A stretch of DNA of 64,000 bases, taken from the sequence record MZ311865.1. The stretch is one strand, 5' to 3'. The notes under the pieces are model-generated. The model was not told the DNA's origin, searched no databases, and worked only from the letters and a program-made list of their open reading frames with translations. Shown here piece by piece: positions 24,091 through 24,546 of this stretch. Position 1 is the first letter of the stretch. Each line of letters begins with the position of its first letter. A program made the position numbers and the translations under genes. The DNA is from Escherichia phage vB_EcoM_LNA2.

Positions 24091-24546
24091 TTATTTTAGA
24101 TCTTCGGCCCAATCTAGTTTTAAGGGTTCTTTGTATTCACGGTCGAGAATAACCGGAATAGCTACATCACCACTGAATGATAGTTGGCCAACGTTATATG
24201 ATAACGTTATATGTGGAGTGTAGTCGTCGAAATCATGAGTAGCACCTAAAGCTCGTGCATACTGATGACGGCATCTAAGATATTCAGAATCAAGAACTAA
24301 AACCAGTACAGAGCCGTCGTCAGTTTTCCATACCTCAAAGTGACCTGATTCAGCAACAGAATAACTGCCACTAGATGTAGTATACGGTATGTTTACACGT
24401 GAATAACAAATTGTTGAATGAAGCTTTTCACGTGGTACTGGATTAGGAATTCTTAATTTACGCTGGAGGTCTTCCAGCGCATCAAGTGTTAATTCTGAAA
24501 ACTTAGCTGCGACGTAGAGGCCTTGTGAAAAGTCCTCAAATTTCAT
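24091..24546 (-). CDS. 57B: 57B-like 2H phosphoesterase (Acb1-type cyclic-oligonucleotide phosphodiesterase candidate)
   Basis: Two H-x-T/S motifs (KLHSTI and TPHITLS) characteristic of the 2H phosphoesterase fold; size and position (before 57A and gene 1) match T4 57B. Confidence 0.65.

Follow-up and report, generated by a model that had tools for sequence, protein, structure and literature searches.

Escherichia phage vB_EcoM_LNA2 carries a Mosigvirus orthologue of the T4 anti-CBASS protein Acb1 between genes 57A and ipI

The best described relative of the gene considered here is found in phage T4. Hobbs 2022 (PMC9117128) used activity-guided fractionation to show that T4 gene 57B is Acb1. 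The protein has a 2H phosphoesterase fold with an HxT/HxT tetrad made of H44, T46, H113 and T115 (PMC9117128). According to the same paper, Y12, W74, F107 and W147 stack on bases, E141 contacts the adenine N6, and residues 145-152 form a C-terminal lid. T4 without acb1 loses all cGAMP-cleaving activity and has a more than 300-fold defect on CBASS hosts. Gene 57B is dispensable on K-12, and transposon libraries show its depletion under CBASS only (HIDEN-SEQ). Hobbs et al. assayed nine further Acb1 homologues, and 9 of the 9 cleave 3'3'-cGAMP and cAAA. The paper adds that by cutting cAAA, Acb1 could work against type III CRISPR signalling as well. When overexpressed, Acb1 can set off Panoptes, a decoy-nucleotide system, and an acb1 deletion in T4 leaves the Panoptes defence unchanged. 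RB69 goes unmentioned in PMC9117128. A 2026 survey counts acb1 as one of the anti-defence genes that are characteristic of both Tequatrovirus and Mosigvirus.

The gene we compare with this system lies in a stretch of 64,000 nucleotides, which we call the window. It occupies 24091..24546 on the minus strand, begins with ATG in the list of open reading frames, and encodes 151 amino acids plus a stop codon. Many Mosigvirus genomes match the DNA around it at 97-98% identity, so the window belongs to an RB69-like T-even phage. The product matches the Pfam family PF23474, "Anti-CBASS protein Acb1", with E 8.5e-59 and 197.9 bits, well past the curated cutoff of 27. This match covers the whole profile (1-144 of 144) and residues 8-149 of the product. 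In a sequence search of the PDB the top match is Acb1 from Erwinia phage FBB1 (7T26/7T27, E 6.9e-59, residues 9-148). A search against NCBIfam with the same product matched no family.

The pairwise comparison with T4 is the most direct one. The sequence-only reading had proposed an orthologue of T4 57B/Acb1. It asked for an alignment to gp57B and named low identity, with the histidines of the two motifs off the catalytic positions, as the outcome that would count against it. That alignment has now been run, and its outcome is the opposite one. The product and T4 gp57B (NP_049750.1; T4 genome NC_000866) are identical at 130 of 151 positions and positive at 139 of 151, without a gap (E 5e-103). 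This is 86% identity, and both motif histidines fall on the catalytic H44 and H113. Residue n of the window protein is residue n+1 of T4 gp57B. The match to RB69 57B (NP_861847.1) is closer still at 149/151 (99%), and the protein of phage APCEc01 is identical over 151/151. There are 58 phage records with copies at 99% identity or more, and homologues are found in 1,471 phage records. The gene order is also that of T4. By sequence and position, we conclude that this is the Mosigvirus (RB69-type) orthologue of T4 gp57B/Acb1. We do not claim this identity as a discovery. The family is curated in Pfam and has a solved structure, genetics has validated the T4 orthologue, and identical proteins are already deposited.

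It had also been noticed that the 151-residue product holds two H-x-T/S motifs, HSTI and HITLS, and both can be read in the translation. The first is H43-S44-T45-I46 (24409..24420, minus strand; T4 H44/T46) and the second is H112-I113-T114-L115-S116 (24199..24213, minus strand; T4 H113/T115). The histidine and threonine of each are the residues described as catalytic in PMC9117128. The product has five histidines, and these are its only two H-x-[ST] sites. Motifs of three residues are too short to be significant by themselves, so homology has to be the test. The numbers in PMC9117128 agree exactly with the T4 gp57B numbering, and the numbering we inferred for the FBB1 chain departs from them in part after a one-residue insertion. 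Since the published numbers do not all match the inferred FBB1 ones, residues were mapped through T4. All nine of the published residues are kept in the window protein, as Y11, H43, T45, W73, F106, H112, T114, E140 and W146. W146 (T4 W147) lies in the C-terminal lid segment, which is LDWAEDLK at residues 144-151 (24094..24117, minus strand) and LDWADDLK in T4. The window protein differs from T4 gp57B at 21 positions, and 0 of the 21 fall on these nine residues.

A wider alignment covered 11 sequences: the window protein, T4, KP179, Muldoon, Acj9, 50AhydR13PP, Vibrio D482, JC03, Roth41, BcepSauron and the FBB1 chain. They represent 10 lineages at about genus level and are 32-86% identical to the window protein. 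G9, Y11, H43, T45, H112 and T114 are among the invariant columns, and E140 is nearly invariant. Two members of this alignment are unusual in their own right. The Pseudotevenvirus homologues of Cronobacter phage JC03 and Klebsiella phage Roth41 (159-782 of each compared segment) are 207 amino acids long, with a C-terminal extension of about 55 residues. They have no tryptophan equivalent to the lid W146/W147, and their catalytic tetrad is intact. A variant lid or an extra domain is possible in these two proteins.

The fold is best considered through the solved structure. The window protein is 62% identical to Acb1 7T26 over 140 residues with one single-residue gap. At 62% identity to a crystal structure the fold is already settled, and the protein is predicted to be a compact 2H phosphoesterase with a C-terminal lid. 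A single-sequence AlphaFold2 model (mean pLDDT 33.8, pTM 0.27) was too poor to use, and the fold assignment rests on the identity to the solved structure.

Gene order is a separate line of reasoning. Gene 3 is at 25569..26159. It is followed by the upstream neighbour gene 1, a dNMP kinase (24781..25515; Pfam DNMK, E 1.1e-96), and by gene 57A, the tail-fibre assembly chaperone (24546..24776; Pfam GP57, E 5.9e-23). Then come acb1 and its downstream neighbour ipI (23726..24013; Pfam IPI_T4, E 2.6e-49; PHROG 4363, internal virion protein). The last encodes internal protein I, an inhibitor of the GmrSD restriction enzyme. All of these genes are on the minus strand. The order 3-1-57A-acb1-ipI matches T4, and gene 1, 57A, acb1 and ipI also follow each other in RB69. 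Past ipI there are homologues of trna.4, trna.3 and trna.2 and two tRNAs, again matching T4. The gene had been said to sit at the 57B position of T4, and it does lie between 57A and ipI exactly as there. The same reading spoke of an anti-defence neighbourhood beside ipI. The IPI_T4 match at 23726..24013 bears this out, and the adjacency of Acb1 and ipI as an anti-defence island was already pointed out in the founding paper (PMC9117128).

The internal-protein locus beside acb1 is variable. In RB69, 57B and ipI are separated by an additional gene for an internal head protein. In 308Ecol101PP and others there is an additional ORF of 87 amino acids, without a Pfam match, between ipI and the trna.4-like gene. 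In the window these two genes are separated by a gap of 49 bp (23677-23725), and ipI is the sole internal-protein gene there. This variation accounts for an indel of about 330 bp in the megablast matches. The tRNA genes of the window also deserve a remark. There are two only, Arg(tct) and Met(cat), at 22065-22219 on the minus strand, and T4 has eight tRNAs, the homing endonuclease segB and two small stable RNAs at the equivalent place. With Rfam at gathering thresholds, the whole window yields these two tRNAs and nothing else. On the other side of the locus, the homologue of the head-completion protein gp4 (27080-27529, minus strand) matches the Pfam Tn7_TnsA-like_N endonuclease family (E 1.9e-20). 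This is a match to a nuclease-type fold in a protein that is annotated as structural.

The stop codon of 57A and the ATG of acb1 share one base (TAATG). This overlap suggests that the two genes are co-transcribed and translationally coupled. Upstream of both, at 25131-25138 on the minus strand, gene 1 contains the T4 late-promoter motif TATAAATA. T4 gene 1 carries TATAAATA at the aligned position, and this conservation may partly reflect coding sequence. Expression of T4 57B/acb1 is reported as middle/late, and cGAMP-degrading activity appears in T4 infection from about 15 min. The motif in gene 1 fits both reports. We argue that acb1 probably shares a transcript and translational coupling with 57A, with a middle/late timing taken by analogy from the T4 and FBB1 experiments. 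The whole window has 18 copies of TATAAATA. Shuffles give an expectation of 7.5, and 0 of the 100 had as many as 18. Most of the copies are on the plus strand at 36.8-61.7 kb, as expected for the late structural-gene block.

The 77-bp spacer between acb1 and ipI contains a promoter-like element of T4-early type. It was picked out in a sigma-70 scan at 24076..24048 on the minus strand and reads GTTTACA-17-TACTAT, with a TG extended -10. T4 and Klebsiella phage KP179 keep the hexamers. A 10-bp hairpin overlaps the promoter spacer and the -10 element (24068..24042, minus strand), with an MFE of -17.1 kcal/mol and a z of -3.6 in an 80-nt context. Hairpins of 10-13 bp each, with z from -3.2 to -5.6, are found at the same place with different arms in T4, KMB22, KP179, Mosigvirus G2285 and Gaprivervirus TH40 (at about 5890-5930 of the compared segment in T4 and 675-715 in KP179). 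The arrangement occurs in four genera, namely Mosigvirus (in two versions), Tequatrovirus, Jiaodavirus and Gaprivervirus. RNAalifold on a MAFFT alignment of the spacer found no consensus pairs, since the position of the hairpin shifts by 1-3 nt from lineage to lineage. Each version folds independently, and with registers that differ in this way we do not claim formal in-register covariation. Over 23000-26400 the sigma-70 scan gave 11 promoters against 11.6 in shuffled sequence, which is chance level, and a terminator scan gave 4 against 2.1, which is not above chance. No promoter call here rests on the sigma-70 scan alone. The hairpin may mark where the 57A-acb1 transcripts have their 3' end, or may modulate the downstream promoter.

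It is worth setting out what the protein would do. We put the probability at about 95% that, by homology, it is a small metal-independent 2H phosphodiesterase with an anti-CBASS role. In our analysis the identity of the gene, the conservation of the named functional residues and the synteny are established, and the catalysis, substrate range, timing and in vivo effect would be those expected by analogy with T4 and FBB1. The enzyme would bind cyclic di- and trinucleotides that contain adenosine and are produced by the CBASS CD-NTases of the host (3'3'-cGAMP and cUA, as well as cAAA). Y11, W73, F106 and W146 would stack on the bases of the ligand, E140 would read the adenine N6, and the C-terminal lid would close on the ligand. 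H43, T45, H112 and T114 would then provide acid-base catalysis, with the 2'-OH of the adenosine attacking the 3'-5' bond. Ring opening would pass by way of a cyclic-phosphate intermediate and leave a linear product, which is GpAp in the case of 3'3'-cGAMP. A linear product could not activate the CBASS effectors, and abortive infection would be prevented.

One can imagine that the RB69-lineage allele does something new. It could have a shifted substrate spectrum that includes, for example, signals beyond the reach of T4 Acb1. Its interplay with host systems that respond to a depletion of cyclic nucleotides (Panoptes-like) could be different, or the spacer hairpin could be a dedicated control point for the timing of acb1 and ipI. 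We consider this quite improbable. Another reading is that the RB69-lineage Acb1 has moved to another range or target, and acts mainly on the cA3 of type III CRISPR or on other cyclic nucleotides and not on CBASS. The 21 substitutions relative to T4 gp57B leave some room for this, as does the idea that cleaving cAAA could counter type III CRISPR signalling. However, most of the 21 are conservative changes or lie where the family is variable, and the named catalytic and ligand-contact residues are unchanged. Every one of the nine other homologues in Hobbs et al. cuts 3'3'-cGAMP as well as cAAA. Cleavage of cA3 would come in addition to the anti-CBASS activity and not instead of it. A change of target in this lineage is very improbable.

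The remaining alternative comes from annotation. PHROG 755, in which the product is placed, carries the label "RNA ligase", and so do many RefSeq records of acb1 homologues, including T4 NC_000866 and RB69. Taken literally, the name would make the product a LigT-like 2'-5' RNA ligase or a 2H enzyme of RNA repair, perhaps acting on RNA ends. A weak Pfam match to 2_5_RNA_ligase2 (E 0.018) and the two tRNA genes about 2 kb downstream of acb1 could be cited in its favour. However, that match, to PF13563, scores 15.5 bits where the cutoff is 27 and spans residues 77-131 only, whereas Acb1 is matched at 197.9 bits over its full length. It is the only Pfam match besides Acb1, it is partial and below threshold, and NCBIfam gives this reading no match either. 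On this score membership of the LigT / 2'-5' RNA ligase family is not supported. Cleavage of cGAMP was the activity followed when the T4 orthologue was purified, all of this activity is lost without acb1, and residues specific to the ligand (E141 and W147 of the lid in T4) are conserved. An RNA ligase is extremely improbable here, and we argue that the label is a propagated misnomer that appears to be inherited from the name of the 2H/LigT superfamily. Some records already annotate the acb1 homologue as "cyclic phosphodiesterase". The labels "RNA ligase" and "hypothetical protein" should read Acb1, cyclic-oligonucleotide phosphodiesterase.

With the product read as Acb1, this RB69-like phage carries a presumably functional anti-CBASS nuclease, and this may help to predict host range on E. 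coli that bear CBASS. The practical value is limited and no new question is opened, for the family, the mechanism, the structure, the genomic context and the presence in Mosigvirus are all published.

It remains to compare the locus with the known systems. T4 gp57B/Acb1 is the founding member of the family. The window protein shares its catalytic, stacking and adenine-reading residues and its lid, and the gene shares its slot between 57A and ipI and its overlap with 57A. It differs by the 21 substitutions and has one residue fewer at the N-terminus, where the T4 protein begins with MM in its annotation. Genes 57A and 57B overlap by 4 nt in T4, and the window has an overlap of 1 nt (TAATG). RB69 57B and the other Mosigvirus orthologues, such as that of APCEc01, are this same gene, found in phages of the same genus. 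RB69 differs in having two internal-protein genes after 57B where the window has ipI only, and 308Ecol101PP differs by its additional 87-residue ORF after ipI, which the window lacks. FBB1 Acb1 (7T26 apo, 7T27 with 3'3'-cGAMP) has the same HxT/HxT tetrad and is the structural template from which the 2H fold and the mechanism of the lid are taken. It has one single-residue insertion, and it has F and Y where the window protein and T4 have the residues W73 and F106. LigT / 2'-5' RNA ligase (PF13563) shares two HxT/S motifs and the fold superfamily, but Acb1 acts on cyclic oligonucleotide signals and not on RNA ends. Apyc1, the AcrIII-1 ring nuclease and poxin are alike in that they destroy a cyclic-nucleotide messenger of host immunity. 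They act on cNMPs, cA4/cA6 and 2'3'-cGAMP respectively, are structurally distinct according to PMC9117128, and are not homologous to the window protein.
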